In this document: positions 13,421-27,510 of the stretch, one piece after another | Position numbering within the stretch: position 1 is the stretch's first letter | How the letters are laid out: every line of letters starts with the position of its first letter | NCBI GenBank assembly: GCA_017510065.1 | Contig: JAFWOB010000115.1 | Coordinates: 1 to 32,000 of the forward strand | Direction: 5' to 3' | Length of the DNA stretch: 32,000 nt | From: Parasporobacterium sp. | GTDB lineage: Bacteria; Bacillota; Clostridia; Lachnospirales; Lachnospiraceae | Notes under the pieces: generated by a model | What the model saw: the letters and a program-made list of their open reading frames with translations, nothing else | Databases searched by the model: none | What the model was told of the DNA's origin: nothing | Translations under genes and position numbers: made by a program

Positions 13421-13490
13421 ACACATAGAACAGATATAGCAGAAACTATGCTTACATGTTCGAATGATAATGATACAAGGTGGTGATCGT

Positions 13491-16076
13491 ATGAATATCA
13501 ATAAATTTACGAAGAATGCTATCGAAGCGATCAATAACTGCCAGAAACTGGCAAATGAATACGGCAACCCGCAGATCGACTGCGAGCATCTGCTGTATGC
13601 GCTGACGGAACTGGATGACAGCTTGCTCGTGAAACTGATCCGGAAGATGGAGATCGATCCGGAGGAATTCAAGGGCTCTGTGATGGCCCTGATCCAGAAG
13701 AAACCGAAAGTAAGGGGCGGACAGCAGAATATCAGTGTTGCACTGAACGATGTGCTGATCAATGCGGAAGATGAAGCCAAGGCGATGGGAGACGAATACA
13801 TCGCTGTGGAACATCTGGTTCTCTGCATGATGAAGAAGGGCAGCAGGGAAGTGAAGAACCTGTTCTCCCAGTTTGACATTACAAGGGAAAAGTTCCTACA
13901 GGCGCTGGCGCCTATACGGGGCAACCAGAAGATCACAACGGATAATCCGGAAGCAACCTATGAAGCCCTTGAGAAGTATGGACAGGACCTGGTGCAGAAG
14001 GCACGTGAACAGAAGCTGGATCCTGTAATCGGCAGGGACAGCGAGATCCGCAACGCGATCCGGATCCTTTCCAGAAAATCCAAGAACAACCCGGTGCTGA
14101 TCGGTGAACCGGGCGTCGGCAAGACGGCTGTGGTGGAAGGTCTGGCGCAGAGGATCGTAAAGGGGGATGTTCCCGAGGGCCTGAAGGATAAAACGATCTT
14201 CAGCCTGGATATGGGATCTTTAGTGGCAGGCGCTAAGTACAGAGGTGAGTTTGAGGAACGTCTGAAAGCAGTCCTGCAGGAAGTGAAGGAAAGCGAAGGA
14301 AGGATCATCCTCTTTATCGACGAGATCCACACGATCGTCGGTGCCGGCGCAGCGGAGGGCTCCATGGATGCCGGCAATATGTTAAAGCCCATGCTGGCAA
14401 GGGGTGAACTGCACTGCATCGGCGCTACGACGCTGGATGAATACCGCAAGTATATTGAGAAAGACAAAGCTCTGGAAAGAAGATTCCAGCCTGTTCTTGT
14501 AGAAGAACCTTCCGTGGAGGATACCATTTCTATCCTTCGTGGGATCAAGGAACGGTATGAGAATTATCATGGCGTCAAGATCACGGACTCGGCCCTGGTC
14601 AATGCTGCCGTGCTTTCGGACCGCTATATTTCCGACCGGTATCTGCCTGACAAGGCGATCGACCTTGTGGATGAAGCCTGTGCCATGATCAAGACCGAGA
14701 TGGATTCCATGCCGACGGAAGTAGACGAACTGAGACGCCGTGTGATGCAGCTGGAGATCGAAGAAACGGCACTGAAGAAAGAAACCGATAAATTAAGCAT
14801 GGAACGTCTTGCGGAGCTCCAGAAAGAGCTTGCGGAGTTAAGGGACGAATACAAGTCCAAGGTTGCCCAGTGGGAGAATGAAAAGACCGAGGTTGAGAAA
14901 GTATCCGCTCTGCGTGCCAGGATCGAAGAGATCAACAACGAGATCGAGATGGCCGAAAGAAACTACGACCTGGATAAGCTGAGCCAGTTGAAATACGGGG
15001 AACTCCCCCAGGCGGTAAGAGACCTGGAAGATGCCGAGGCAAAACTGTCGGGCGAGGATCTTTCCCTGGTACACCAGGCAGTAACAGACGAAGAGATCGC
15101 CAGGATCGTTTCCCGTTGGACCGGTATTCCGGTCGCCAAACTGAACGAAACAGAGCGTAACAAGATCCTGGGTCTGTCGGAGATCCTTCACAGGAGGGTC
15201 ATCGGTCAGAACGATGCTGTCACCAAGGTGGTGGACGCCATCTGGAGAAGCAAAGCAGGTATCAAAGAGCCGGGAAGACCGATCGGATCGTTCCTGTTCA
15301 TGGGACCTACCGGCGTGGGAAAGACCGAGCTGGCGAAAGCTCTGGCTGAGGCTTTGTTCGATGATGAAGGCAATATTGTCCGGATCGATATGTCCGAGTA
15401 TATGGAGAAACATTCCGTATCCCGTCTGATCGGAGCGCCTCCGGGATATGTAGGGTATGACGAAGGAGGGCAGCTGACAGAAGCCGTTCGGAGAAGACCG
15501 TATTCCGTTGTCCTGTTTGATGAAGTGGAGAAAGCCCATCCGGATGTTTTCAATGTCATGCTGCAGGTGCTGGATGACGGCCGCATAACCGATTCCCAGG
15601 GAAGGACGGTGGATTTCAAGAATACGATCATTATCCTGACATCCAACATAGGATCGCAGTTCCTGCTGGAGGGGATCGATGACAACGGGGAGATCAAACC
15701 GGAGGCTTCGGAACTGGTTATGGAGCAGCTGCGGCGGAGCTTCCGTCCGGAATTCCTGAACCGTTTGGATGAGATCATCATGTTCAAGCCTTTAACGAAA
15801 GATGATATTTCCAGGATCATAAGTCTGCAGATCAGTGAGATCAACAAACTGCTGGCTGAAAAGGAACTCAGGATCGAACTGACAGAAGAAGCAAAGAACC
15901 TGGTGGCAGACAGAAGCTATGATCCGGCTTATGGCGCAAGACCTCTCAAGAGGTTCCTGCAGAAATATGTGACTACACTGGCAGCCCGCATCATACTTGA
16001 AGGCAATATAAAGCCCGATGATGTGATCGAAATCTATGTGGATGAAAGAAAAGAACTGGCAGCCCGTGTGAAATAA
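13491..16076 (+). CDS. clpB: ATP-dependent chaperone/disaggregase ClpB
   Basis: It has a Clp N-domain and two AAA+ modules (GEPGVGKT and GPTGVGKT Walker A motifs). A long coiled-coil middle domain separates them, and a C-terminal ARPLKR motif is present. The start is at ATG 13491 (MNINKFT...), preceded by AAGGTGGTGA. Confidence 0.95.
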
Positions 16077-16106: not shown

Positions 16107-16149
16107 GGGGGACGCTGTATGGAGAACATGCGGCGTTCCCCGATTTTAT
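16107..16149 (+). terminator. Probable terminator after clpB
   Basis: Stem ggggacgc / gcgttcccc with a one-base bulge, followed by gattttat. It lies between convergent genes. Confidence 0.45.
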
Positions 16150-16160
16150 GATGAAATGGG

Positions 16161-16559
16161 TCAGCTGATATGGCTTTTTTTAACAGTGGTATAGATAAAG
16201 AAGGCCGGGATCAGGATACCGATTCCAAACTGTACCAGAAGATACCCGATGATGATGCCGTTGAAAAACGACAGGATAACAGACAGAAGACAGAAAATAA
16301 TGGCGATTGCCGGGAGACGGATGACGATGGGGGAATTGATGCGTTTGCTGGAACTTCTGACACCGCCGATCCCTGATATGATGTCCATGATAAAACCGAC
16401 ACAGGCACAGGCAGCGCAGATAAACGTGAGACCCGGAGAGGCGCCGGGAGATCCGTATCGTTCCAGTACAATAAGGACCTGTTCGGCGATGCCTCCTGCT
16501 CCCGCCAGTATCATCAGGATGCTGAAAACAGTGAAAATGACACTTCTGGCAGTTCCCAT
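16161..16559 (-). CDS. Small integral membrane protein (about 4 TM helices), unknown function
   Basis: Hydrophobic 132-aa product starting at MGTARSVIF..., with AAGAGG 5 nt upstream. The longer 182-aa version in the ORF track has no RBS. Confidence 0.6.
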   Translation of the reverse strand: MGTARSVIFTVFSILMILAGAGGIAEQVLIVLERYGSPGASPGLTFICAACACVGFIMDIISGIGGVRSSSKRINSPIVIRLPAIAIIFCLLSVILSFFNGIIIGYLLVQFGIGILIPAFFIYTTVKKSHIS

Positions 16560-16621
16560 AAAAACCTCTTTAAAAAAAATGTTAAATCTATTATAGTAAA
16601 TGAGATATACTATGTAAAGAT

Positions 16622-17962
16622 TTGGATTACTGCATGGATATTTTTGAATATGCCCATCAGAACAGAATAAAACAGGAAGCTCCATTGGCATCCAGGATGA
16701 GGCCTGCAACCCTGGACGAGTTCATGGGGCAAAAGCATATTCTATCGGAAGGCAGCCATCTGTATCGTTCTATCAAAGCGGACAGACTGTCGTCTGTTAT
16801 TTTTTATGGACCAAGCGGTACCGGAAAGACGACACTTGCCAGAGTGATCGCTAACCAGACCTCTGCAGATTTCCGGCAGATCAATGCAACAGTTGCCGGG
16901 AAAAAGGACATGGTCGAGATCGTGGAACAGGCCAAGATCACCAGGGCAGGATTCGGACGCAAGACGATTCTGTTCATTGACGAGATCCACCGCTTCAATA
17001 AGGCGCAGCAGGATTATCTGCTTCCCTTTGTGGAAGACGGGACCGTGACCCTGATCGGTGCCACCACAGAGAATCCTTATTTTGAAGTGAACGGGGCGCT
17101 GATCTCCCGGTCTACGATCTATGAGTTGAAACCACTGGAAAAAGAAGATATCCGTGCCATTATTCTCAAGGCTGTCTACGACAAAGAAAAAGGCATGGGT
17201 ATGTATCATGCGGTGATCGATGACGAGGCAGCGGATTTTCTGGCGGATTTTTCCGGCGGTGATGCCAGGACAGCGCTGAACGCCGTTGAACTGGCAGTCC
17301 TTACGACGCCTCCGGAACCTGAGCAGCAACAGATCCATATTACGACGCAGGTGATCGCGGAATGTATCCAGCGCAAAAACCTCAGATATGACAAGGACGG
17401 AGACAATCATTATGATACGATTTCCGCCTTTATCAAGAGCATGCGGGGATCCGATCCGGATGCGGCGGTGTATTACCTGGCCAAGATGCTCTATGCAGGA
17501 GAGGATGTGAACTTTATCGCCCGCCGGATCATGATCTGTGCCGCGGAGGATGTGGGATGCGCCGATCCGAGAGCCCTGCAGGTAGCGGTGGCTGCCCAAC
17601 AGGCTGTACATCTTCTGGGGATGCCGGAAGCCAGGATCCCTCTGGCGGAAGCGGTGATCTATGTGGCAGGAGCTCCGAAGAGCAATTCTGCTGTCATGGC
17701 GATCGATAAGGCTATGGCACTGGTGGAGCAGACAGACATCCGGGAAGTGCCTTCCCATCTGCGTGACGGACATTATCCGGGTGCATCCAAACTGGGACGG
17801 GGCCTGGATTACAAATATGCCCATGATTTCCCGGAACACTATGTAAAGCAGCAGTATCTTCCGGACGAACTGGAAGGTACGAAGATCTACGAGCCCGGAA
17901 CCCTGGGGTATGAAAAGAACATGAAGGACAGGCTGGACCGCCTGAAAAACAGGAATGAGTAA
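16622..17962 (+). CDS. rarA: Replication-associated recombination protein A (RarA/MgsA AAA+ ATPase)
   Basis: It has Walker A YGPSGTGKTTLARVIA and Walker [17 protein letters not shown]. The MgsA C-terminal region is present (YDTISAFIKSMRGSDPDAAVYY...ARRIMICAAEDVG). The start may be ATG 16622 or 16634; neither has a clear SD. Confidence 0.93.
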   Translation: MDYCMDIFEYAHQNRIKQEAPLASRMRPATLDEFMGQKHILSEGSHLYRSIKADRLSSVIFYGPSGTGKTTLARVIANQTSADFRQINATVAGKKDMVEIVEQAKITRAGFGRKTILFIDEIHRFNKAQQDYLLPFVEDGTVTLIGATTENPYFEVNGALISRSTIYELKPLEKEDIRAIILKAVYDKEKGMGMYHAVIDDEAADFLADFSGGDARTALNAVELAVLTTPPEPEQQQIHITTQVIAECIQRKNLRYDKDGDNHYDTISAFIKSMRGSDPDAAVYYLAKMLYAGEDVNFIARRIMICAAEDVGCADPRALQVAVAAQQAVHLLGMPEARIPLAEAVIYVAGAPKSNSAVMAIDKAMALVEQTDIREVPSHLRDGHYPGASKLGRGLDYKYAHDFPEHYVKQQYLPDELEGTKIYEPGTLGYEKNMKDRLDRLKNRNE

Positions 17963-20900
17963 TCTTTTGTATGATGCGCTCATGCTGGGACGCAACAAGA
18001 AGGTAGCAAATGAAGAATACCAGGTTGCTTCCGGCAGAAAAGAGCAGGCATCATTCCATGTGGAAGAAGAATACGTTACGATCTCCAACGTCATCTCGGA
18101 TGGCGAATTTTCTGTACATCTGCGCCAGGATGTGGCCGGTTACATGGAGATCGAAGTCTTCTGTGACGATCCTTTCCTGATCTTCGACCGGAAAGTCCTG
18201 ACGACAGACGAATTCACCAACGGGGTCTTTGAGTTCAAATTCATGGTGATCTCTGACCGGCTGCATAACGGAAGGAACTATACTTCCATTCAGTTCCGCA
18301 CTTCCTGTCAGAATCTGGTTCTTCCCGTGGTGGTTGACAACAAGATCCGGATCGGTCTTACAGGAGACAGCCCCAGGGAACGGTATCTGCGTATTGCGAA
18401 GGAACTGATTTCTCTGAAAATGGGGAAGACAGAGAAGTGGCAATGGATCGAATCCTCCCAGGAACTGCTGAACGAGATTCCGGGAGAAGATGAAGCGTCT
18501 TTATTTCTGATGCTCCTTAAGGCACAGGTTTACATAACAGCCGGAGACGATATTCATGCCAGGAATTATATCGAGCATGTAGGTACCCAGATTCCCAAAC
18601 TGGAAGAGAAAAATTACGATATTTACTGCTATTTTATCTATCTGGCCAGCCTTTATGAAGAAGTGGATGGCGTTCTGAACTTTGCCGAAGCTGACCTTCC
18701 GGTCCCGGACAGTATGCCCCGCGGAAACCGGCAGCAGGGGAGAAGCTCGTCTCCTTCCAATATTATGGATATGTCGGCTCTGCAGAAAGTGAGATGGGTC
18801 TATTCCCACAATCCCAGCTGGTGGATCCTGTTCCTCCTGTTCTATATGGATCCGGGCTACGGGAACGATCCTGTCAGGCGTCTTGAAGAGATGAGGGAGA
18901 TGTTTTATGACCTCGGATGCATAAGCCCTCTTATGTATCTGGAATCCCTGAAGATCCTGTCGGAACTTGCGAAAACTATGACGGAAGCAGGGCCGTTTGA
19001 GATCCAGCTGCTTCATTTTGCTGTAAGGAACGACTGCCTGAACAAAGAACTGGCGGTGCGCGCAGCTTCGCTGGTCTGCAAAGAGGAAGGTGCTGCATTA
19101 TCCCTGTCCGATGTCAGACTGGCTGTCGGGATCTTTCGATATGCCTATGACCGGTTCGGCTCAGGCGAGATCCTGGAAGCACTTTGCCGGATGCTGATCC
19201 GGGCCGAACAAAGGGATGTATCCTGCCACCGGTATTTCGAGCAGGCCGTACAGGAAGGAAGTACGGATGAAGAAATCCTGAATTACTATATCTATACCAT
19301 CGATCAGACACAGATGGAGAGGATGGACAGCCGGGCAGTGAAGTACTTTCTGGAGCATACAGAGCTTCTGTATGAATACCAGGCCTATATCTATGCCAAT
19401 ATCATCACTAACCGGTATTACGATCCGGGGATCTATGAAGAAGCCAGAGCTGCTGTCCTGCGGTTTGCAGAGTACCGTATGATCCAGGGGCATAATGACG
19501 CGCTTATGGCTGTCATTTACAGAGATATCCTGGACAGCGGCCAGGTGTCTCAGGTGATGAAGGAGCATCTTTTTGAGGTGGTCTGCACAAAGGAGGTGCT
19601 CTGTGACAATGACCGTATGAGCGCTGTTCTGGTGTTTCATGATGAACTGCAGGTATATCAGGAGAGTCTGCTCAGGAAGGGAAAAGCATGCATCAGGATT
19701 TATTCTTCGGATGCGGTGATTCTCTTTAAGGATGTCACCGGAAATCTTTATTACAATGTTCCCTATAAAGTCGACCGGCTGCTGGAGACCAGGGAATACA
19801 TAGACCAGTGTATCAGGGATGTCAGGATCAGTCCCTATATGCTGCTGAAGGAAACATTTCCGATCCTGAGAGCCTATAAACCCCCGTTGGAGATCCTGCA
19901 GTATTTTACTTCAAACCAGATGGCCGGACAGTTCCGAAAAGGCTATGAACAGGAACTTCTGACCAGGATCATTTCCTATTATGTCAAGAATTCCAGGGAT
20001 GAGAAGGTCTATGATGAACTTCCTAAACTCATCCGCTTTGATCTGTCTCCGGATACCAGAGGACAGCTGATCCGGATCATGTTGGAACGCGATCTGATGG
20101 AAGAAGCTTATGAACAGGTGCGTGAGTACGGCCCCTGTGGACTTTCCCCAGCAGATCTGGCGAGGCTGGCGCATGGCTATATCGCTCTTAACGGGCTGGA
20201 TGAAGAGCCGCTTCTGACCTATCTGTGCGAAAGCGGATTCAATGCCGGAGGTTTTGACGAAGATATTTTCGAATATCTTTACCGGCATTATAACGGACGA
20301 ATGGATCTTCTGATCGAAATCTACCGTTCCTGCAATGCCTATCACAAAGAGGCGGCCGCCATAGAGGAGAGGATCCTGTGTAAAGCCGTATCCACAGGGG
20401 AGCATCCTGAGATCGTTTCCCAGATATTTAAACGCTTCTATGAAGAAGGCGGCAGCAGAAAGGTCCTCAGCAGGTATCTGGAATACCGTGCAGGTCTTTA
20501 TCTGTACCGTCTCATGACACAGGATACATCGCAGCAGGAAGAAAAAGACCTGGAGTTTTTCGATTACCTGGAAAAGGATCTGATGAAAGGGATTTCTTTC
20601 GGAGACGACTCTCTGGCAGCATATCTGCTGTACCGGACAGAGCTGGAAGATCCTGATGAAAGGCAGATCCGTACCATGGAACGGGTTCTTAAGGATCTGG
20701 TACGAAGAGGAAAAATGCTGGAGGAATTCAAGTACTACCAGAAATTTTTTGAGTTGCCTTCCACCCTCGCAAATAATATAATCATATCTGCGTTTTCAGA
20801 GGACGGCAGGGAAGTTCCCCATATCGCCTACAAAGTGACGGGTCCGGGACCCGCTGTTTCAGGTGAGGAAGAAATGGAGGAGATCTTCCGCCGCTGCTAT

Positions 20901-21125
20901 GTCAAATACTTCACGCTTTTCTATGGGGAAAAGGTGGTGTTTTCCATGGGAGGACAGGAAAATACCGAAGTAAGATATGCGGATCTGTCGATCCGAAGGG
21001 ATGGATCCATGTACGCGCAGTTAGATGACCTGATCAGGATGAAGAGCCAGGGCAATACGGAAGGCTTCCTGCAGGCGGCACGGGAATACTATTTGAAGCA
21101 GAAACTGATCGAGAGATTGTTGTAA
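17955..21125 (+). CDS. 1056-aa cytoplasmic protein of unknown function (beta-rich N- and C-terminal modules flanking a long alpha-helical repeat region)
   Basis: The reading frame is uninterrupted for 3.2 kb. Its ATG overlaps the rarA stop by 8 nt (ATGAGTAA). I saw no signal peptide, TM segment or catalytic motif. I recall similar ~1000-aa Lachnospiraceae proteins annotated only as a DUF (possibly DUF5717), but this is unverified. Confidence 0.85.
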   Translation: MSNLLYDALMLGRNKKVANEEYQVASGRKEQASFHVEEEYVTISNVISDGEFSVHLRQDVAGYMEIEVFCDDPFLIFDRKVLTTDEFTNGVFEFKFMVISDRLHNGRNYTSIQFRTSCQNLVLPVVVDNKIRIGLTGDSPRERYLRIAKELISLKMGKTEKWQWIESSQELLNEIPGEDEASLFLMLLKAQVYITAGDDIHARNYIEHVGTQIPKLEEKNYDIYCYFIYLASLYEEVDGVLNFAEADLPVPDSMPRGNRQQGRSSSPSNIMDMSALQKVRWVYSHNPSWWILFLLFYMDPGYGNDPVRRLEEMREMFYDLGCISPLMYLESLKILSELAKTMTEAGPFEIQLLHFAVRNDCLNKELAVRAASLVCKEEGAALSLSDVRLAVGIFRYAYDRFGSGEILEALCRMLIRAEQRDVSCHRYFEQAVQEGSTDEEILNYYIYTIDQTQMERMDSRAVKYFLEHTELLYEYQAYIYANIITNRYYDPGIYEEARAAVLRFAEYRMIQGHNDALMAVIYRDILDSGQVSQVMKEHLFEVVCTKEVLCDNDRMSAVLVFHDELQVYQESLLRKGKACIRIYSSDAVILFKDVTGNLYYNVPYKVDRLLETREYIDQCIRDVRISPYMLLKETFPILRAYKPPLEILQYFTSNQMAGQFRKGYEQELLTRIISYYVKNSRDEKVYDELPKLIRFDLSPDTRGQLIRIMLERDLMEEAYEQVREYGPCGLSPADLARLAHGYIALNGLDEEPLLTYLCESGFNAGGFDEDIFEYLYRHYNGRMDLLIEIYRSCNAYHKEAAAIEERILCKAVSTGEHPEIVSQIFKRFYEEGGSRKVLSRYLEYRAGLYLYRLMTQDTSQQEEKDLEFFDYLEKDLMKGISFGDDSLAAYLLYRTELEDPDERQIRTMERVLKDLVRRGKMLEEFKYYQKFFELPSTLANNIIISAFSEDGREVPHIAYKVTGPGPAVSGEEEMEEIFRRCYVKYFTLFYGEKVVFSMGGQENTEVRYADLSIRRDGSMYAQLDDLIRMKSQGNTEGFLQAAREYYLKQKLIERLL

Positions 21126-22400
21126 ATGGCAGGAAGAGGATTAACGATCGGCATTGATTATACAGACCAGTACTGTCAGGCCTGCTATTACAGCGAGCGG
21201 CATGGAAGGCCTGAGTCGGTTTCCGGAGGTACGGATGTTCTCAGATATCTGATACCTTCCGTTTTATGCCTTGATCAGAACAATTTCGAGTGGGTCATCG
21301 GCAATGCGGCCCTGAGGATCGAAGAACAGGAAAGAGTCCTTACTTTCCGGGATCTTCTGAAGCATGCCAGGGAAAACGACACGGTCTTTACGGGAGAACG
21401 GGAGTATACTTATGTACAGCTTCTGGCAGCCTTTTTCGGACAGCTGCTGGAGTTTATCCGGATCCGGACTTCCGTGATGACGGTAGAGAGCATTACCGTT
21501 ACCATGAAACAGACCGACCGTCTGACTAAGGATATCCTGGAACAGGCCTTTGGCATTCTTCAGATCCCGGCATCCTGCATAAAGCTTTTGAGTGCCAGCG
21601 AAAGTTTCGGTTATTACATCCTCAATGAGGATCCCGGGCTGTGGCAGGACGGGGCACTGGTGTTTGATTTCAGCTCGGAAGGGTTCTTTGTGAAGCAGCT
21701 CCATGTGCAGTTTCACAAAGATCAGCCGGTCATCTGTGTTAATGACTATGATTTTTCCGCTGATTTTTCCGTCGACAGTCTGGCCAGTGAAGTGCTTCGA
21801 AACCAGATGGATCTTAAGATTTCCAATCTGTATCTGGACCTGATCTCCAAAGGGGAGAATGCAAGTGTCTATTTTACGGGGGAAGGATTTGATGAACAGT
21901 GGTTTCTGGCGACCCTGAACAGTATTTCGGGAAACCGCAGAGCTTTTAAGGGAAACAATATCTATGTAAAGGGTGCCTGTATTGCGGGACATTTACGAAG
22001 TGAAGGGATCGTGCAGGGATTTCCGATCATCTGCAGGGGCAGGACCAGAGCCGATATATACCTGCAGGCATGGGACAATGGAAAGCTTTCTGACATCCTT
22101 CTTTCCCCGGCTGCTACAGACTGGTATGATGCCGGCTATGAAGGCGATTTTATCCTGGAGGAGGAAGAAAAGGTTCTTTTCAGGATCGTCTCCATTATGA
22201 CAGGCGCAGTCGCCAGTGTGGAACTGGATCTTTCAGCTTTTCCGAAACGGCCTTCCAAGGCGACCAGGATCAGGATCCGGATCTGTTATTCGGGAGAGTA
22301 CGATTGTGAGATTTCGATACAAGACAAAGGATTCGGGGATTTTTTCCCGGATTCAGGAGCACGAGTTTCCAGAAGGATCAATCTGGAAGGATATATTTAA
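21126..22400 (+). CDS. Divergent Hsp70/actin-fold (ASKHA-like) protein with degenerate nucleotide-binding loops
   Basis: Its ATG directly abuts the upstream TAA. Four segments are collinear with Hsp70 NBD motifs:
- LTIGIDYTDQYCQA
- SITVTMKQTDRLTKDILEQAFGILQIPASCIKLLSASESFGYYIL
- ALVFDFSSEGFFV
- SVYFTGEGF
The Gly-rich loops are replaced. Confidence 0.8.
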   Translation: MAGRGLTIGIDYTDQYCQACYYSERHGRPESVSGGTDVLRYLIPSVLCLDQNNFEWVIGNAALRIEEQERVLTFRDLLKHARENDTVFTGEREYTYVQLLAAFFGQLLEFIRIRTSVMTVESITVTMKQTDRLTKDILEQAFGILQIPASCIKLLSASESFGYYILNEDPGLWQDGALVFDFSSEGFFVKQLHVQFHKDQPVICVNDYDFSADFSVDSLASEVLRNQMDLKISNLYLDLISKGENASVYFTGEGFDEQWFLATLNSISGNRRAFKGNNIYVKGACIAGHLRSEGIVQGFPIICRGRTRADIYLQAWDNGKLSDILLSPAATDWYDAGYEGDFILEEEEKVLFRIVSIMTGAVASVELDLSAFPKRPSKATRIRIRICYSGEYDCEISIQDKGFGDFFPDSGARVSRRINLEGYI

Positions 22401-22403
22401 CAC

Positions 22404-23201
22404 ATGCTGACCGCAACAAAACAGGCAGAAACCGGATATTGGATCGAAGCCCTGAAGAAAAATGTGTATTCCCTGGAGGAGATCAACTATTATCTCTATC
22501 ATCACATGGAACTGGTCTACAGGGATTTCTTCAGTGATGCTCTGTTCGAGTACATCGAAAAGGAGCTGGAGCAGCCTGCCATCGCCCAGGATCTGAGAGA
22601 GATTTCCCTGAAAGGCGGTGGGATCGGCGACTTTGTCAGATATCTGCTGAGCGAATCCTATTACTTTAACAGCCGGGAACTGGCACAGATCTCGGCCCTT
22701 GTATCCGGGATCGATGACATGGGACAGGCAGAACGGATGAAAGTGCAGGGGGATTCTCTGTATCAGTCAGGCCGTTTGAATTCTGCCCTCAGGTGCTATC
22801 TGGAGATCCTGAGGAAACGGGAATCGGAACCTGTCAGCGATTCTTTTTATGCCAGAGTTGCGTATTCGATCGGTACGATCTATGCGAGGCAGTTTATGTG
22901 CAGGAGTGCCAATACCTATTTTTCCCTTGCCTACGAACTGTCACCGGATCCTGCCTATGCCAGAGCCTGCCTGTATATGAGCCTTCTGGCAGGGGATGAC
23001 GAAGAACTGCTTTCTTCCATCGTGAAATACAAGATCAGTGATGACTATCTGGATGCCGTACGGCAGAGGATCAGGGCAACCCGGAACGAAACGGAATCTT
23101 CCGAAGAAACACAGCTCTTTTTCCGTAATCTGGAAGAAGAAACGTTCGCCCGGGACATGCTGGAACAATGGAAGAATGAATATTATACTATTTTGAAGTA
23201 A
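22404..23201 (+). CDS. TPR-like helical protein, unknown function
   Basis: It starts 3 nt after the upstream stop. The central region has TPR-like helix pairs (MKVQGDSLYQSGRLNSALRCYLEIL; YARVAYSIGTIYARQFMCRSANTYFSLAYELSPD). Confidence 0.8.
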   Translation: MLTATKQAETGYWIEALKKNVYSLEEINYYLYHHMELVYRDFFSDALFEYIEKELEQPAIAQDLREISLKGGGIGDFVRYLLSESYYFNSRELAQISALVSGIDDMGQAERMKVQGDSLYQSGRLNSALRCYLEILRKRESEPVSDSFYARVAYSIGTIYARQFMCRSANTYFSLAYELSPDPAYARACLYMSLLAGDDEELLSSIVKYKISDDYLDAVRQRIRATRNETESSEETQLFFRNLEEETFARDMLEQWKNEYYTILK

Positions 23202-23213
23202 AAGAGGAACACA

Positions 23214-25874
23214 ATGAAGGAATTAGCAAAAACCTACAATCCGAAAGAAATCGAACAGAGTATCTATGATAACTGGCTGAAGCAGAAGTATTTTCATGCT
23301 TCCTGTGATGAGAGCAAAAAGCCGTTTACCATCGTCATGCCGCCTCCGAATATTACAGGGCAGCTCCATATGGGCCATGCCCTGAACAATACGCTACAGG
23401 ATATTGTGATCCGGCAGAAGAGGATGCAGGGGTATGATGCCCTGTGGCAGCCGGGGTGCGACCATGCCTCTATTGCAACTGAAGTCAAGATCATCGAAGC
23501 GTTGAAAAAGGAAGGCATTGACAAGCGTGACCTGGGCAGAGAGAAGTTTCTGGAAAGAGCCTGGCAGTGGAAGGAAGAGTATGGCGGACGGATCGTCAAC
23601 CAGCTGAAAAAGCTCGGTTCTTCTGCCGACTGGGACAGAGAGCGCTTCACAATGGATGAAGGACTTTCGGATGCTGTCCTGCAAGTGTTCGTAAAAATGT
23701 ATGAGAAAGGCCTGATCTATAAAGGGACCAAGATCATCAACTGGTGTCCGAAATGTCTGACAACGGTCTCGGATGCGGAAGTGGAGCATAAGGATACGCC
23801 GGGTCATTTCTGGCATATCAATTATCCGATCAAGGGGGAAGACCGCTGCATCGAGATCGCGACAACGCGTCCCGAGACCATGCTGGGTGATACGGCAGTG
23901 GTAGTGCATCCGGATGACGAGAGGTATCAGGACCTGATCGGCAAGACTGCGATCCTGCCGATCGTAAACCGGGAACTGCCGATCATCGCCGACACCTATA
24001 TTGATCTGGAAGTCGGAACAGGAGCCATGAAGGTTACTCCGGCACATGATCCCAATGACTTCGAACTGGGCAAACGTTACCAGCTGGAAGAGATCTGCGT
24101 CTTTACAGACGATGGACATATCAATGAAAACGGCGGGAAATACGAAGGCATGACGACTCTGGAATGCCGGGAGGCGATCGTCAAAGAACTGGAGGAAATG
24201 GGGCTTTTAGTGAAGGTAAAAGCCTATGAGCACAGTGTGGGCCATCATGACCGCTGCGGCTGTATCATTGAACCCATGATCAAACAGCAGTGGTTCGTGA
24301 AAATGGACGAACTGATCAAGCCGGCGATCAAAGCGGTGGACGAGGGAGAAATCCGTCTGATCCCCGCCCGTATGAATAAGCTTTATCATAACTGGACGGA
24401 CAACATCAGAGACTGGTGTATTTCCAGACAGCTGTGGTGGGGACATAGGATCCCGGCATACTACTGTGACAGCTGCGGTCATATGACGGTGGCACGGGAA
24501 TGTCCGGATGTCTGTCCGGAATGCGGCGGTACTTCTTTCCAGCAGGATGAGGACTGCCTGGACACCTGGTTTTCCTCGGCCCTGTGGCCGTTCAGTACTT
24601 TGGGATGGCCGGAGCAGACACCGGAACTGAAGCATTTTTATCCGACCAATCTCCTGATCACCGGTTATGATATCATCTTCTTCTGGGTGATCCGGATGAT
24701 CTTCTCCGGGTATGAGCATATGGGAGAGAAGCCTTTTGACGCCGTTTTGTTTACCGGTCTGGTCAGGGACGAACTGGGACGGAAGATGAGCAAATCCCTC
24801 GGTAACGGCATTGATCCCCTGGAGGTGATCGATAAATATGGCGCTGATGCTCTCCGGTTTACACTGGTCACCGGCAATTCTCCCGGAAATGACATGCGCT
24901 TCTCCTGGGACCGCGTGGAAGCGAACCGGAACTTTGCCAATAAGATCTGGAATGCATCCCGGTTCATCCTGATGAATCTGCCGGAAGAAGGGGTGAAGAC
25001 ACCAAAGGAAGAAAGCCTGCATGATGCAGATAAATGGATCCTGTCAAGGGCCAACAAACTGACCCGTGTTGTGACCGAGAACATGGATAAATATGAGATC
25101 GGTATGGCAGCAGACAGACTGTATGAATTTATCTGGGATGAACTGTGCGACTGGTATATCGAAATGGTGAAACCGAGACTGTACGGTGAAGACGAAGAAA
25201 GCAAACATGCGGCGTTATATACCCTGCGTACAGTGCTGATGACTTCCCTGAAACTCCTGCATCCGTATATGCCGTTTGTCACGGAAGCGATCTACGGTTC
25301 CCTGCAGCCGCTGGCAGCAGACCTTTATCCGGAGGAGTCCATCATGATCTCCGCCTGGCCGGTATATGATGAGACCATGGATTATGAGGAAGCGGAAAGA
25401 AGGACACAGATGATCATGGAGGCGGTAAGAGGTATCCGGAATGTTCGTTCCGGCATGAATGTTCCGCTTTCACGCAAGTCAAAAGTCTATGTCGTATCGG
25501 AGTCTGAAGAGATCCGGGAGATCTTCGAGCACGGACATGTGTTCTTTGCAACCCTGGGAAAAGCCAGTGAGGTTATGATCCAAAAAAATACAGAGGGAAT
25601 TGCAAAAGATGCCTTGTCAGTTCAGCTGGCGGGTGCTACTATATACATTCCTCTGGAGGATCTGGTGGACATCGATAAGGAAATCGAGCGTCTGGAGAAG
25701 GAAAAGATACGGCTTGAAGGCGAGCTGAAGCGTGTTGACGGCATGCTCTCCAATGAGAGATTCCTTTCCAAGGCTCCTGAAAGCAAGATCCGTGAAGAGC
25801 AGGAAAAGAAAGAGAAATATGCAGGCATGATGGCCCAGGTGGAAAGCCAGTTGGCATCCCTCAGAAGATCATAA
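23214..25874 (+). CDS. valS: Valine--tRNA ligase
   Basis: It has a class I HIGH motif (PNITGQLHMGHA), KMSKS (RKMSKSLGN), an editing-domain insertion and a C-terminal coiled coil. RBS AAGAGGA lies upstream. The gap to the upstream gene is only 12 nt. Confidence 0.97.
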   Translation: MKELAKTYNPKEIEQSIYDNWLKQKYFHASCDESKKPFTIVMPPPNITGQLHMGHALNNTLQDIVIRQKRMQGYDALWQPGCDHASIATEVKIIEALKKEGIDKRDLGREKFLERAWQWKEEYGGRIVNQLKKLGSSADWDRERFTMDEGLSDAVLQVFVKMYEKGLIYKGTKIINWCPKCLTTVSDAEVEHKDTPGHFWHINYPIKGEDRCIEIATTRPETMLGDTAVVVHPDDERYQDLIGKTAILPIVNRELPIIADTYIDLEVGTGAMKVTPAHDPNDFELGKRYQLEEICVFTDDGHINENGGKYEGMTTLECREAIVKELEEMGLLVKVKAYEHSVGHHDRCGCIIEPMIKQQWFVKMDELIKPAIKAVDEGEIRLIPARMNKLYHNWTDNIRDWCISRQLWWGHRIPAYYCDSCGHMTVARECPDVCPECGGTSFQQDEDCLDTWFSSALWPFSTLGWPEQTPELKHFYPTNLLITGYDIIFFWVIRMIFSGYEHMGEKPFDAVLFTGLVRDELGRKMSKSLGNGIDPLEVIDKYGADALRFTLVTGNSPGNDMRFSWDRVEANRNFANKIWNASRFILMNLPEEGVKTPKEESLHDADKWILSRANKLTRVVTENMDKYEIGMAADRLYEFIWDELCDWYIEMVKPRLYGEDEESKHAALYTLRTVLMTSLKLLHPYMPFVTEAIYGSLQPLAADLYPEESIMISAWPVYDETMDYEEAERRTQMIMEAVRGIRNVRSGMNVPLSRKSKVYVVSESEEIREIFEHGHVFFATLGKASEVMIQKNTEGIAKDALSVQLAGATIYIPLEDLVDIDKEIERLEKEKIRLEGELKRVDGMLSNERFLSKAPESKIREEQEKKEKYAGMMAQVESQLASLRRS

Positions 25875-26088: not shown

Positions 26089-27510
26089 ATGAAATGTTAT
26101 AAGTGCGGAAGTTTTTTATATGACGGGGAATACTGCAGCACCTGCGGAGCTGATGTGACCGTATACCGGAAGATCGTTCTGAAATCCAACGATCTTTATA
26201 ACAGCGGTCTTCAGTTTGCCAGGGACAGAAACCTGAGCAAGGCTGCAGAATACCTGAAAATGAGTCTGAAACTTTATAAAGGGAATATCAACGCTCACAA
26301 TCTTCTGGGACTGGTATATTTTGAACAGGGAGAATACACGCTGGGATTTGCCCACTGGATCATCAGTAAGAATATCCAGCCGGACAACAATCTGGCCAAT
26401 CTGTTTCTGGATCAGATCCAGGAAGATAAAGCCTATGTAGATTCTCTGAATGCCAATATCAAGAAATACAACAAAGCCATCAGCTATGTGGAGCAGGAAA
26501 GCTATGATCTGGCAGAGATTCAGTTGAAAAAGATACTGAACGATAACACCGCCCATATGGTCAAAGCCTATCAGCTTTCTGCCCTGTTAAGGATTCGCAA
26601 GAAGAAATATGCAGCGGCAAGAAAGATCCTGGAGAGAGCCCAGAACATTGATGCGGGGGATTCCACAACCATTGCTCTTATGACAGCCGTGAACAGTCAG
26701 ATCCAGGAAGAAGAGAAGGATCTGACCACAGGGGAACTGAAGGTTAAACGGCAGCAGGAGACCTCTGAAGAGGATGCCCATCTTCCGCTTTCGGGAGATG
26801 ATGTGATCATTCCGAAACCGTCTTATAAGGATTATAATCCGACGACGGTAGCGATCATCCAGATCCTGATCGGGTTCCTGGTGGGGGCAGCCCTGATCTT
26901 CTTTGTTGTCGTGCCGGCCAAGACGAATTCGATACGGAACGAATCTTCCGCCCTGCAGCTGCAGCTGGAGGAACAGGTCTCCATGCTGTCTGAGGAAAAT
27001 GCCAAGCTGAGCGCGGATGTGGAGCAGCAGTCGAAAGCAGCGGAGGATCTGCAGACAGCAGCCAATGACGCGTCTGCGGCAGCATCTGCCGCGGCACAGA
27101 CGACCCAGCAGGATGAGACTCTTCTTCTGGAAGCCTATGATCTGTATCAGAGGGGCGAAAATGAAGCCTGCGGCAACAAACTTCTGGAGATTGGCCATCC
27201 GGAATCCTTTACCGGCGCCAATAAGATGGTCTACGACACCATCAGCTATACCAAGGACGCCATTCCGGATTACTGGTATAACGATGCCATGGCATTGTTC
27301 GAACAGGATGATTTCACAGGAGCTCTGGAACTCTTTACCAAGGTCTATGAAACAGCCAATACGACCGGGGAATCCTTATACTATATGGGACTTTGCCATT
27401 ACAATCTGGATCAGTCAGAACAGGCTGCTTCCAGGTTCCGGGAATATCTGGAATCATTCCCGGAAGGACCCCATGCCGCGGAATGTGACTGGCTGTTGTC
27501 TCTTCTGTAG
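26089..27510 (+). CDS. Zinc-ribbon / TPR-repeat single-pass membrane protein
   Basis: It has an N-terminal CxxC...CxxC (MKCYKCGSFLYDGEYCSTCG), followed by TPR repeats. One TM helix (VAIIQILIGFLVGAALIFFVVV) comes next, then a coiled-coil/Ala-rich stretch and further TPR-like repeats. Confidence 0.85.
   Translation: MKCYKCGSFLYDGEYCSTCGADVTVYRKIVLKSNDLYNSGLQFARDRNLSKAAEYLKMSLKLYKGNINAHNLLGLVYFEQGEYTLGFAHWIISKNIQPDNNLANLFLDQIQEDKAYVDSLNANIKKYNKAISYVEQESYDLAEIQLKKILNDNTAHMVKAYQLSALLRIRKKKYAAARKILERAQNIDAGDSTTIALMTAVNSQIQEEEKDLTTGELKVKRQQETSEEDAHLPLSGDDVIIPKPSYKDYNPTTVAIIQILIGFLVGAALIFFVVVPAKTNSIRNESSALQLQLEEQVSMLSEENAKLSADVEQQSKAAEDLQTAANDASAAASAAAQTTQQDETLLLEAYDLYQRGENEACGNKLLEIGHPESFTGANKMVYDTISYTKDAIPDYWYNDAMALFEQDDFTGALELFTKVYETANTTGESLYYMGLCHYNLDQSEQAASRFREYLESFPEGPHAAECDWLLSLL

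Follow-up and report, generated by a model that had tools for sequence, protein, structure and literature searches.

Ssz1, a subunit of the yeast ribosome-associated complex (RAC), is a lid-less Hsp70 that sits permanently in its complex; its catalysis is dispensable, it still binds ATP, and it partners the J-protein Zuo1 on the ribosome. In closteroviruses, which are eukaryotic plant viruses, the homologue Hsp70h has been co-opted for a structural or assembly role in place of general chaperone work, with its active ATPase site kept. The tetratricopeptide repeat (TPR) domains of eukaryotic co-chaperones clamp the free C-terminal EEVD carboxylate of Hsp70. To our knowledge, hardly any description exists of bacterial Hsp70s that have become permanent subunits without a lid or ATP hydrolysis; Ssz1, the precedent that is known, is eukaryotic. 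Here, we analysed a 32,000-nucleotide stretch of a Parasporobacterium sp. genome (Lachnospiraceae; contig JAFWOB010000115.1, positions 1 to 32,000; hereafter the window) in which three genes of a shared module (A, B and C) are packed between rarA and valS. A preliminary description of this DNA, made from its letters, had proposed that the three products form a cytoplasmic complex. The reading that we favour, with a probability of about 0.5, is that they form a stable non-enzymatic cytoplasmic assembly around a pseudo-Hsp70, the product of B. For comparison, one genome per GTDB species was scanned and 80 loci were fetched. The module genes and the two domains of B lie in the window as follows:

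17955-21125, + strand: gene A, DUF5717 family, 1056 aa (Pfam, AlphaFold2, Foldseek)
21126-22400, + strand: gene B, DUF5716 family, 424 aa (AlphaFold2, Foldseek, profile search, active-site statistics)
21126-22010, + strand: B residues 1 to ~295, compact Hsp70-type nucleotide-binding domain
22023-22385, + strand: B residues ~300-420, β-sandwich like the β-part of the Hsp70 substrate-binding domain
22404-23201, + strand: gene C, 265 aa, its ATG 3 nt past the B stop (TAA-CAC-ATG)

The coordinates, the junctions and the tight packing of A, B and C between rarA and valS given in the preliminary description all hold, and the names DUF5716 and DUF5717 that it suggested were right. B matches Pfam DUF5716_C (PF18980; E = 1.5 × 10−69, 234.7 bits against a cut-off of 34.7), and A matches both DUF5717_N (PF18984; E = 2.5 × 10−146, 489.2 bits; cut-off 25) and DUF5717 (PF18983; E = 2 × 10−40, 139.2 bits; cut-off 25), and all three are genuine genes and not chance open reading frames (ORFs). 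Window B is 100% identical to a protein of a Parasporobacterium sp. metagenome-assembled genome (MAG), and the RefSeq label of its Eshraghiella crossota orthologue is “DUF5716 family protein” only. A full-text literature search with the DUF names and the Pfam accessions of DUF5716/DUF5717 returned no relevant paper (the sole text match was a spurious motif call in human MAX), which agrees with the earlier statement that no characterised system of this kind is known, the homologues being known only as DUF5716/DUF5717. Hydropathy profiles of A, B and C contain no transmembrane (TM) segment, as had also been noted.

Predicted Hsp70 fold of the DUF5716 protein

An AlphaFold2 (AF2) model of B built on 42 diverse homologues was confident (predicted local distance difference test [pLDDT], 91.3; predicted TM-score [pTM], 0.89). 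All top 50 matches in a Foldseek search of this model against the PDB were Hsp70s (E = 10−19 to 4 × 10−14; 10-14% identity), including DnaK, BiP, Hsc70, mortalin, Ssz1, Ssb and Hsp110, and the best of them were full-length or lid-truncated Hsp70s aligned over ~500-530 columns including gaps. Superpositions were best on DnaK with the β-part of its substrate-binding domain (SBD-beta) docked on the nucleotide-binding domain (NBD) (7kru and 7krv; query-normalised TM-score [TMq], 0.59-0.60), followed by ATP-bound open forms (TMq about 0.52-0.54), and were poorer for ADP-type undocked structures (TMq 0.44-0.48; root mean square deviation [rmsd], 15-23 Å). Viral structural matches (BFVD) were generic Hsp70 homologues only. 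Independently of structure, the B family profile matched the DnaK NBD by sequence (E = 3 × 10−4); neither Pfam HSP70 (PF00012; E ≤ 1) nor NCBIfam returned a match for B. Because the Foldseek matches and the independent profile match point the same way, B is best described, from model and profile together, as a lid-less Hsp70 derivative composed of an NBD and a β-sandwich SBD. The α-helical lid is missing from the model: past the β-sandwich there is no more than a 4-residue helix before the chain stops at residue 424. Family members measure ~415-440 aa. The β-sandwich holds the most invariant surface motifs of the family (W333, P373/R375, T380/R381 and D400-G-F-G404). In one B subfamily (P0062, P0065 and ten representatives of 365-391 aa), ~40-50 residues of lobe IB are missing, the region that bears Lys70 in DnaK.

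Degeneration of the nucleotide site

Nucleotide-site positions were mapped through the HMMER alignment of the family to DnaK, and residues were counted in 149 representatives, one per 50%-identity cluster:

DnaK Asp8 position: D 91%
DnaK Gly10 position: G 21%
DnaK Thr11 position: D 37%, N 26%, E 14%; T 5% or less
DnaK Thr12 position: D 38%, E 25%, T 5%
DnaK Lys70 position: D 36%, E 17%, K 9%, R 8%; R75 in the window
DnaK Asp194 position: D 70%, E 17%
DnaK Gly196, Gly197 and Gly198 positions: G 13%, 9% and 7%
DnaK Thr199 position: G 48%
Adenosine-motif glycines: G 100% and 87%

Window B carries degenerate phosphate-1 and phosphate-2 loops (IGIDYTDQYCQ, residues 8-18, and DFSSEGF, residues 181-187) and a retained adenosine motif (TGEGF, residues 251-255). 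Judged by these counts, the family has lost the catalytic lysine and both phosphate loops, often through acidic replacements, with the fold and a few acidic and glycine positions kept. The Hsp70-like fold with degenerate ATP loops that had been read from the single sequence is therefore borne out by the model and Foldseek matches, by the profile match to the DnaK NBD and by the 149-representative counts. Since Lys70 and both phosphate loops are replaced across the representatives, B is very probably a pseudo-ATPase.

The most serious rival is that B is an active, specialised Hsp70 chaperone which binds ATP, hydrolyses it through a divergent site and cycles on dedicated clients, with A and C as its TPR co-chaperones or client adaptors. 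The Hsp70 body is kept, SBD-beta included, as are the equivalents of Asp8 and Asp194, the adenosine glycines and an invariant Glu159, and TPR proteins are classical Hsp70 co-factors (Hop, CHIP and Tom70). However, an acidic residue stands at the Lys70 position in 53% of representatives and a lysine in 9%, charged residues have taken the place of the phosphate-binding Thr and Gly, B has no lid with which to trap clients, and one subfamily has part of lobe IB deleted. In addition, Pfam scans of window A, B and C, and of a fourth protein, D (described below), from five related loci, contained no DnaJ or GrpE domain and hence no J-domain or GrpE-type partner. We consider an active chaperone unlikely, and the fusions described next weigh further on this point.

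Gene C and natural B-C fusions

C carries two to three TPRs (residues ~105-195) between a family-specific N-terminal domain (residues 1 to ~100; invariant E25 and E26; motif YS.EEL.YYLYNN) and C-terminal helices that end in WK.EYR. The single sequence stays below the Pfam TPR thresholds (TPR_12, 23.3 bits against 30.1), and it was a 31-sequence profile of orthologues from the loci that matched TPR proteins, over positions ~109-195 only (consensus TPR proteins, SKI3, SPINDLY and KLC), upholding the initial reading of C as TPR-like.

Seven of the 150 best B representatives are B-C fusion proteins (703-727 aa), and their C-terminal half is full-length C (hhalign probability 100%, E = 1.5 × 10−42 and 8 × 10−37). 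In a neighbour-joining tree the fusions form five separate fusion-only clades, one of which is deep (its three representatives all share <50% identity with one another); one fusion (P0152) is identical on two independent assemblies and occupies a normal locus (rarA, A, B-C fusion, D, T-box, valS). Fusions of this kind occur naturally in as many as five lineages, of which two have good support. By the Rosetta-stone argument these fusions support direct contact between B and C, with the B C-terminus near the C N-terminus. The tails of unfused B proteins differ among clades (..LEGYI, ..IWEKEISF and ..DDLLL), and an EEVD-like docking of the window's B tail (..NLEGYI) in the TPR groove of C was considered and rejected, the tail being unconserved across clades and internal in fusions. 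Because the B C-terminus is internal in the fusions, a free-carboxylate (EEVD-type) clamp is ruled out as the conserved binding mode, which also counts against the active-chaperone alternative.

The DUF5717 protein as a putative scaffold

The predicted architecture of A comprises five parts:

18051-18341, + strand: A residues 33-129, PapD/ASH (MSP)-like β-sandwich (AF2, Foldseek)
18372-19586, + strand: A residues 140-544, first TPR-like α-solenoid (AF2 secondary structure, pLDDT)
19587-19778, + strand: A residues 545-608, small all-β domain between the solenoids (pLDDT ~85-89)
19788-20792, + strand: A residues 612-946, second α-solenoid (AF2)
20820-21122, + strand: A residues 956-1056, C-terminal α/β module, the end of Pfam DUF5717 (pLDDT mostly 44-58)

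The underlying AF2 model was moderate (pLDDT 78.6, pTM 0.50) and was made from 16 sequences, the same 16 being returned by a profile search to deepen the alignment; its domain boundaries appear more trustworthy than its overall shape. In this model an N-terminal helix precedes the β-sandwich. The sandwich superposed on the HYDIN PapD-like domain 2e6j (target-normalised TM-score [TMt] 0.65, rmsd 4.4 Å over 110 columns; Foldseek E ~10−2, without sequence-profile support) and on Chlamydomonas central-pair proteins (rmsd 3.0-3.2 Å over 104 columns, probability 1.00, with an E value of only ~10−2). The solenoids drew matches of the Ctr9, Ski3, Prp6, IFT-A, anaphase-promoting complex/cyclosome (APC/C) and Tom70/71 class, and the Foldseek matches of A as a whole, to TPR/solenoid scaffolds and PapD-like domains, are at the level of fold class only. 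Within the all-β domain, H562, E564 and D593 are nearly invariant. The first solenoid contains a low-confidence, poorly conserved loop at residues 236-269; the idea that this loop is a conserved pseudo-substrate of B's SBD was unsupported, since its sequence conservation does not reach beyond the close clade.

Searches of the PDB by single sequence and by a 27-sequence diverse profile found no sequence relative of A, the invariant residues include no recognisable catalytic motif, and no catalytic fold was detected. From model and sequence, A is best taken as a giant scaffold without detected catalysis, and its original characterisation as a giant non-enzymatic repeat scaffold is sustained by the TPR/solenoid and PapD-like matches and by the absence of a catalytic motif among its invariant residues. 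The architecture first drawn from the sequence needed partial revision: the N-terminal β-sandwich followed by helical repeats stands, while the helical part is split into two solenoids by the central β-domain (residues 545-608) and the C-terminal ~100 residues are modelled, at low confidence, as mixed α/β where a β-rich module had been expected.

A membrane protein and a longer A in most lineages

Clustering of all genes of the fetched loci brought out a further gene, D (~400 aa). It is the immediate 3' neighbour of C, in the same orientation, in 45 of 81 loci, and four additional loci have it in this place too. Examples are:

Locus L030, 12103-13293: gene D
Locus L064, 12130-13353: gene D
Locus L081, 12113-13288: gene D
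Locus L084, 9971-11182: gene D

The N-terminal half of D is a charged coiled coil, followed by a pair of neighbouring TM helices with a short loop between them and by a C-terminal half that is again coiled coil; both arms of D would be cytoplasmic. It had no match in Pfam, NCBIfam or the PDB, and across PDB sequence searches of A, B, C and D the only returns were the weak DnaK NBD match (B profile), generic TPR proteins (C) and coiled-coil noise (D). No D was found in the window by tblastn and hidden Markov model (HMM) searches, and it is missing from all 28 short-A loci with enough downstream sequence. In D-bearing lineages A itself is longer (1179-1215 aa), and the extra ~150 residues form an additional N-terminal PapD/ASH-like β-sandwich with a helical linker (for example, the first ~160 residues of A at 6136-9696 in L064). 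Because both D and this extra domain are missing from the window's clade, the pattern weakly suggests that the two work together. The proposal of a three-gene cytoplasmic module is therefore accurate for the window's clade and too narrow for the family, since most lineages have four genes, with the two-TM coiled-coil D after C and a longer A.

D also bears on a second alternative, a cytoskeletal or cell-shape system in which B polymerises in an actin-like manner, or A and D form filaments, in often curved, motile rods. The ASKHA fold of B, the long coiled coils and membrane anchor of D, and the curved-rod shape of many host genera (Roseburia, Lachnospira, Eshraghiella/Butyrivibrio and Falcatimonas) would all suit it. 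The top 50 matches of B, however, contain no actin, MreB, ParM or FtsA and consist instead of Hsp70s including the SBD, for which reason the “cytoskeleton-like” option raised initially is no longer favoured; actin-like polymerisation is also normally nucleotide-dependent, and the site in B is degenerate. We regard a cytoskeletal role as distinctly improbable.

Distribution, inheritance and mobility

Relatives of B are encoded in at least 255 species genomes, nearly all of them Lachnospiraceae, with hosts that include Parasporobacterium, Roseburia, Lachnospira, Anaerocolumna, Lachnoclostridium, Catonella, Lachnotalea, Falcatimonas and Anaeromicropila; a HMMER search of 1.84 billion representatives gave 699 B-family clusters at E ≤ 10−30 and 1272 at E ≤ 10−10. 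In all 81 loci where the contig allows, and in four later loci as well, A, B and C sit side by side in one orientation and one order, which answers, for these loci, the question posed at the outset of whether the three co-occur across Clostridia genomes. Intergenic gaps in the module have a median of ~15 nt; in the window's clade, neighbouring genes typically overlap or lie 0-3 nt apart. Conservation of the flanking linkage, also in question from the start, is partial: rarA lies directly 5' of A in 54 of 81 loci, whereas valS abuts C in the window's clade only. The identities of other loci to window A, B and C track rarA identity (Spearman rho 0.76) and fall much faster, so that at 65-70% rarA identity A retains ~24%, B ~31% and C ~28%, against 65% for valS. 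Because the identities of A, B and C fall in step with that of rarA, this pattern indicates vertical inheritance with rapid divergence. Four loci (L004, L005, L006 and L028) come from MAGs labelled Anaerotignum, Treponemataceae, Bacteroidaceae and Ruthenibacterium and hold a Lachnospiraceae-type block (clpB-rarA-A-B-C-valS in L004-L006, and B-C-valS on the short L028 contig), with B 38-51% identical to that of the window; they are probably mis-binned or mislabelled contigs.

Fast divergence relative to the neighbouring housekeeping genes, together with matches in “Bacteriophage sp.” records and IMG/VR contigs, could be taken as signs of a conflict or defence module or of mobile-element cargo. 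Those records, which are unverified metagenomic scaffolds, hold an ordinary chromosomal block (rarA..A-B-C-D-valS); among them (L088, MT835486.1; L089, MT835719.1; and the IMG/VR viral genomes [UViGs] L086 and L087), the block in L088 is flanked by rarA and valS. An association with phages or plasmids was accordingly rejected, the phage records being host DNA or misclassified metagenomic scaffolds with the same syntenic block and none of 72,556 plasmids carrying the module. NCBIfam, PADLOC and PHROGs gave zero matches for A, B and C, which also contain no nuclease, toxin or other effector domain, and the fixed chromosomal position, native GC content and vertical inheritance of the module fit poorly with mobility. 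A defence or mobile-element origin is very improbable indeed.

Locus layout and expression

The surroundings and junctions of the module in the window are as follows:

13464-16076, + strand: clpB
16107-16141, + strand: strong intrinsic-terminator-like hairpin 3' of clpB (15-bp stem, 9 GC pairs, T-tract)
16569-16597, + strand: sigma-70-like promoter candidate 5' of rarA (TTTAAA-17-TATAGT; consensus match only)
16622-17962, + strand: rarA/mgsA, AAA+ replication-associated recombination protein (MgsA_C, 2 × 10−71; AAA_assoc_2; RuvB_N)
17955-17962, + strand: overlap of the rarA stop and the A start, ATGAGTAA, 8 nt
21123-21128, + strand: TAAATG, in-frame A/B junction (A stop abutting the B ATG)
23214-25874, + strand: valS (valyl-tRNA synthetase), 12 nt past C, a syntenic neighbour outside the module

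The Shine-Dalgarno sequences of A, B and C are weak or badly spaced, and valS has a strong one (AAGAGGA) within its 12-nt gap. At A, AGGA abuts the ATG with zero spacer; because of this, initiation at A probably depends on coupling to rarA translation. No terminator comparable to the clpB hairpin was found between rarA and the end of valS in the window, and the clpB terminator probably marks the upstream boundary of the transcription unit; a single rarA-A-B-C-valS transcript fits both this terminator and the terminator-free stretch from rarA to valS. The count of promoter-like sites in the window region was not above that of shuffled controls and hence gives no evidence. The GC content of the module (48.5-49.8%) equals that of its flanks. 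A, B and C share a single reading frame in the window (A-TAA-B-TAA-CAC-C), in which read-through of one stop would yield a fusion protein; the shared frame is not kept in other loci, where overlaps use other frames.

In the Anaerocolumna/Lachnoclostridium clade, A heads its own unit, with an invariant promoter (TTGCTA-18-TGtTATAAT) in nine loci and a ribosome-binding site, GGGGTGG. A sporulation- or flagellar-sigma promoter 5' of A was considered and discarded, since the conserved promoter there is of the sigma-A type with an extended -10, and expression of the module appears from these sequences to be vegetative. A conserved box, ATGTGAACATTTGACTATCCAC, lies just 5' of this promoter (~6020-6045 in L064) in closely related Anaerocolumna-group sequences of the nine aligned, and may be a regulator site or an UP element.

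The essential gene valS is preceded by a T-box leader in the three scanned loci of other clades that gave a hit, all of them D-bearing (L084, 11262-11476; L037, 13356-13560; L064, 13435-13680), and no such leader was found before valS in the window (23202-23213), L007 or L081; in the window's clade, valS has lost its usual tRNA-sensing leader. A functional tie of the module to rarA or valS was rejected in favour of inherited synteny, the linkage being variable and valS having its own T-box in the three loci.

The neighbourhood of valS is one of the points that would favour a ribosome- or translation-associated holdase like RAC, in which B plays the part of Ssz1 and is positioned by A and C. 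Ssz1/RAC structures are among the Foldseek matches of B (7x3k_B and 6sr6; E ~5 × 10−16 to 3 × 10−15), and a truncated SBD and dispensable catalysis would be common to B and Ssz1. We nonetheless think this reading highly doubtful: Ssz1 is no better a match to B than DnaK or BiP, no equivalent of the J-domain partner Zuo1 turned up when window A, B and C, and D from five related loci, were scanned against Pfam, the valS linkage is mere synteny, with the separate T-boxes noted above, and the membrane protein D of most lineages is ill-suited to a ribosomal role.

The other window genes are ordinary housekeeping genes (oxaloacetate decarboxylase subunits, CvfB, an S1 protein, PfkB, a DD-carboxypeptidase and a class A penicillin-binding protein [PBP]). 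A 743-aa ORF at 286-2517 had no Pfam match at E ≤ 10−5, and a tRNA gene lies just downstream (2745-2819). Between clpB and rarA, a hydrophobic 182-aa ORF on the minus strand (16161-16709) overlaps the listed TTG start of rarA; because of this overlap, rarA probably begins instead with the ATG at 16634 (MDIFEY...). At 26089-27510, a 473-aa protein has an N-terminal zinc-ribbon-like CxxC pair, TPRs, a TM helix (residues 250-282), a coiled coil and C-terminal TPRs, and it is syntenic 3' of valS in 23 loci.

A proposed assembly

In the assembly that we favour, B would keep the Hsp70 body with its SBD docked on the NBD as in the ATP-type conformation. Because the lid, the catalytic lysine and the phosphate loops are lost, B would most likely serve as a rigid module for protein binding and would not cycle ATP as a chaperone does. 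C, with its few TPRs, would bind B directly, its N-terminus close to the B C-terminus, and A would provide a PapD/ASH and TPR-solenoid platform of ~1000 residues that recruits or organises partners or clients. In most Lachnospiraceae, D would tether the assembly to the cytoplasmic membrane through its two-TM hairpin, with the coiled-coil arms on the cytoplasmic side; the window's clade would have lost D together with the first of the two ASH domains of A. In the window, translation of the genes probably proceeds by start/stop coupling along a single rarA-A-B-C-valS mRNA. We infer from these features that the complex includes A and D, that B serves as a rigid adaptor and that the assembly is membrane-tethered where D is present. 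The A-B-C complex envisaged in the preliminary description is thus supported in part, by the conserved collinear unit and, for B and C, by the fusions, with the place of A suggested by operon conservation alone.

A wider extension of this proposal is tentative, and we think it more apt to fail than to hold as a whole: a Lachnospiraceae-specific constitutive machine, membrane-tethered in most lineages, in which an Hsp70 has become a nucleotide-independent adaptor permanently bound to a TPR partner and to an ASH/TPR platform of ~1000-1200 residues, and which organises a process on the cytoplasmic side of the membrane, for example the targeting or assembly of proteins, growth of the envelope or the shaping of the cell. 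As to its role, our best guess, offered with low confidence, is that it provides a platform for assembly or targeting at the membrane or cell envelope.

Several points weigh against the favoured assembly and its extension. The model of A is only moderate (pTM 0.50, from 16 sequences), the link of A to the B-C complex is operon conservation, the membership of D is presumed, and the role is a guess. The loss of D and that of the first ASH domain (ASH1) together count as one evolutionary event, and an adjacent D is also missing from three loci with a long A (L035, L060 and L080). Three fusion representatives are singletons and might be stop-codon errors. Finally, the retained Asp8 and Asp194 equivalents and adenosine glycines, together with the invariant Glu159, mean that B may have residual nucleotide or metal binding; Glu159 falls within one helical turn of the Glu171 position, HMMER placing it four residues downstream.

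Significance and comparison with known systems

If the proposed assembly is correct, it would be a bacterial pseudo-chaperone scaffold without a described counterpart. The hosts of the module, a conserved operon of 5-6 kb, include Lachnospiraceae that abound in the human gut and the rumen, such as Eshraghiella crossota, Roseburia, Lachnospira and Anaerocolumna. Because the module is conserved in at least 255 species genomes, is apparently vegetative and occupies 5-6 kb, it probably has an important cellular function that is specific to the clade and escapes notice in model Firmicutes. Folds are assigned here to two DUF families, and C and D are defined as two unannotated partner families. The proposal predicts direct B-C contact, nucleotide-free function of B and a role of D as membrane tether. 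What was already known is that A and B are Pfam DUFs; new with respect to the searched literature are the folds, the loss of the ATPase site throughout the B family, the obligate partnership A-B-C(-D), the natural fusion of B with C and the membrane partner. B and A are clear members of DUF5716_C and of DUF5717_N/DUF5717, labels that carry no function, fold or operon partnership, and C and D, unlike A and B, belong to no family.

For A, the nearest likenesses are non-catalytic multi-protein platforms with similar domains, namely Ctr9 (Paf1C), Ski3 (Ski complex), the APC/C TPR subunits and IFT-A, and, for the PapD/ASH domain, HYDIN and the central-pair proteins. The similarity to these TPR and ASH scaffolds is of fold class only (whole-chain TM-score ≤ 0.14, 9-12% identity), and the domain order of A (ASH, solenoid, β-domain, solenoid, α/β) has no solved counterpart. 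The pairing of an Hsp70 fold with TPRs recalls Hop/Sti1, CHIP, Tom70 and Sgt2, and Tom70/71 and STIP1 are weak matches of A and C; because the B tail is unconserved and internal in fusions, the B-C binding mode differs from the EEVD clamp. Closterovirus Hsp70h provides the best BFVD matches of B (TMq ~0.55), which are no closer than cellular DnaK.

Canonical Hsp70s (DnaK, BiP and Hsc70) share with B the order of a two-lobed ASKHA NBD followed by a β-sandwich SBD, and their five signature segments have counterparts in B: GID..., ESF.YY (NEPTAAA-like), DF...GF (D.GGGTF-like), the adenosine G.G and GNN.YVKGA (N.DEAVA.GAA-like). In contrast to them, B is ~200 residues shorter, has no lid or C-terminal tail motif, does not conserve Lys70 or the phosphate-1 and phosphate-2 loops, has no Pfam HSP70 match and is not accompanied by a detectable J-protein or nucleotide-exchange factor among the scanned module proteins. 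Ssz1 (6sr6 and 7x3k), an Hsp70 derivative with a truncated SBD, is among the structural matches of B. It differs in its partners, since B is accompanied by TPR proteins and mostly by a membrane protein, with no J-domain partner found, and the only link detected between the two is shared Hsp70 ancestry. Ssz1 in RAC is nonetheless the closest mechanistic precedent for B.

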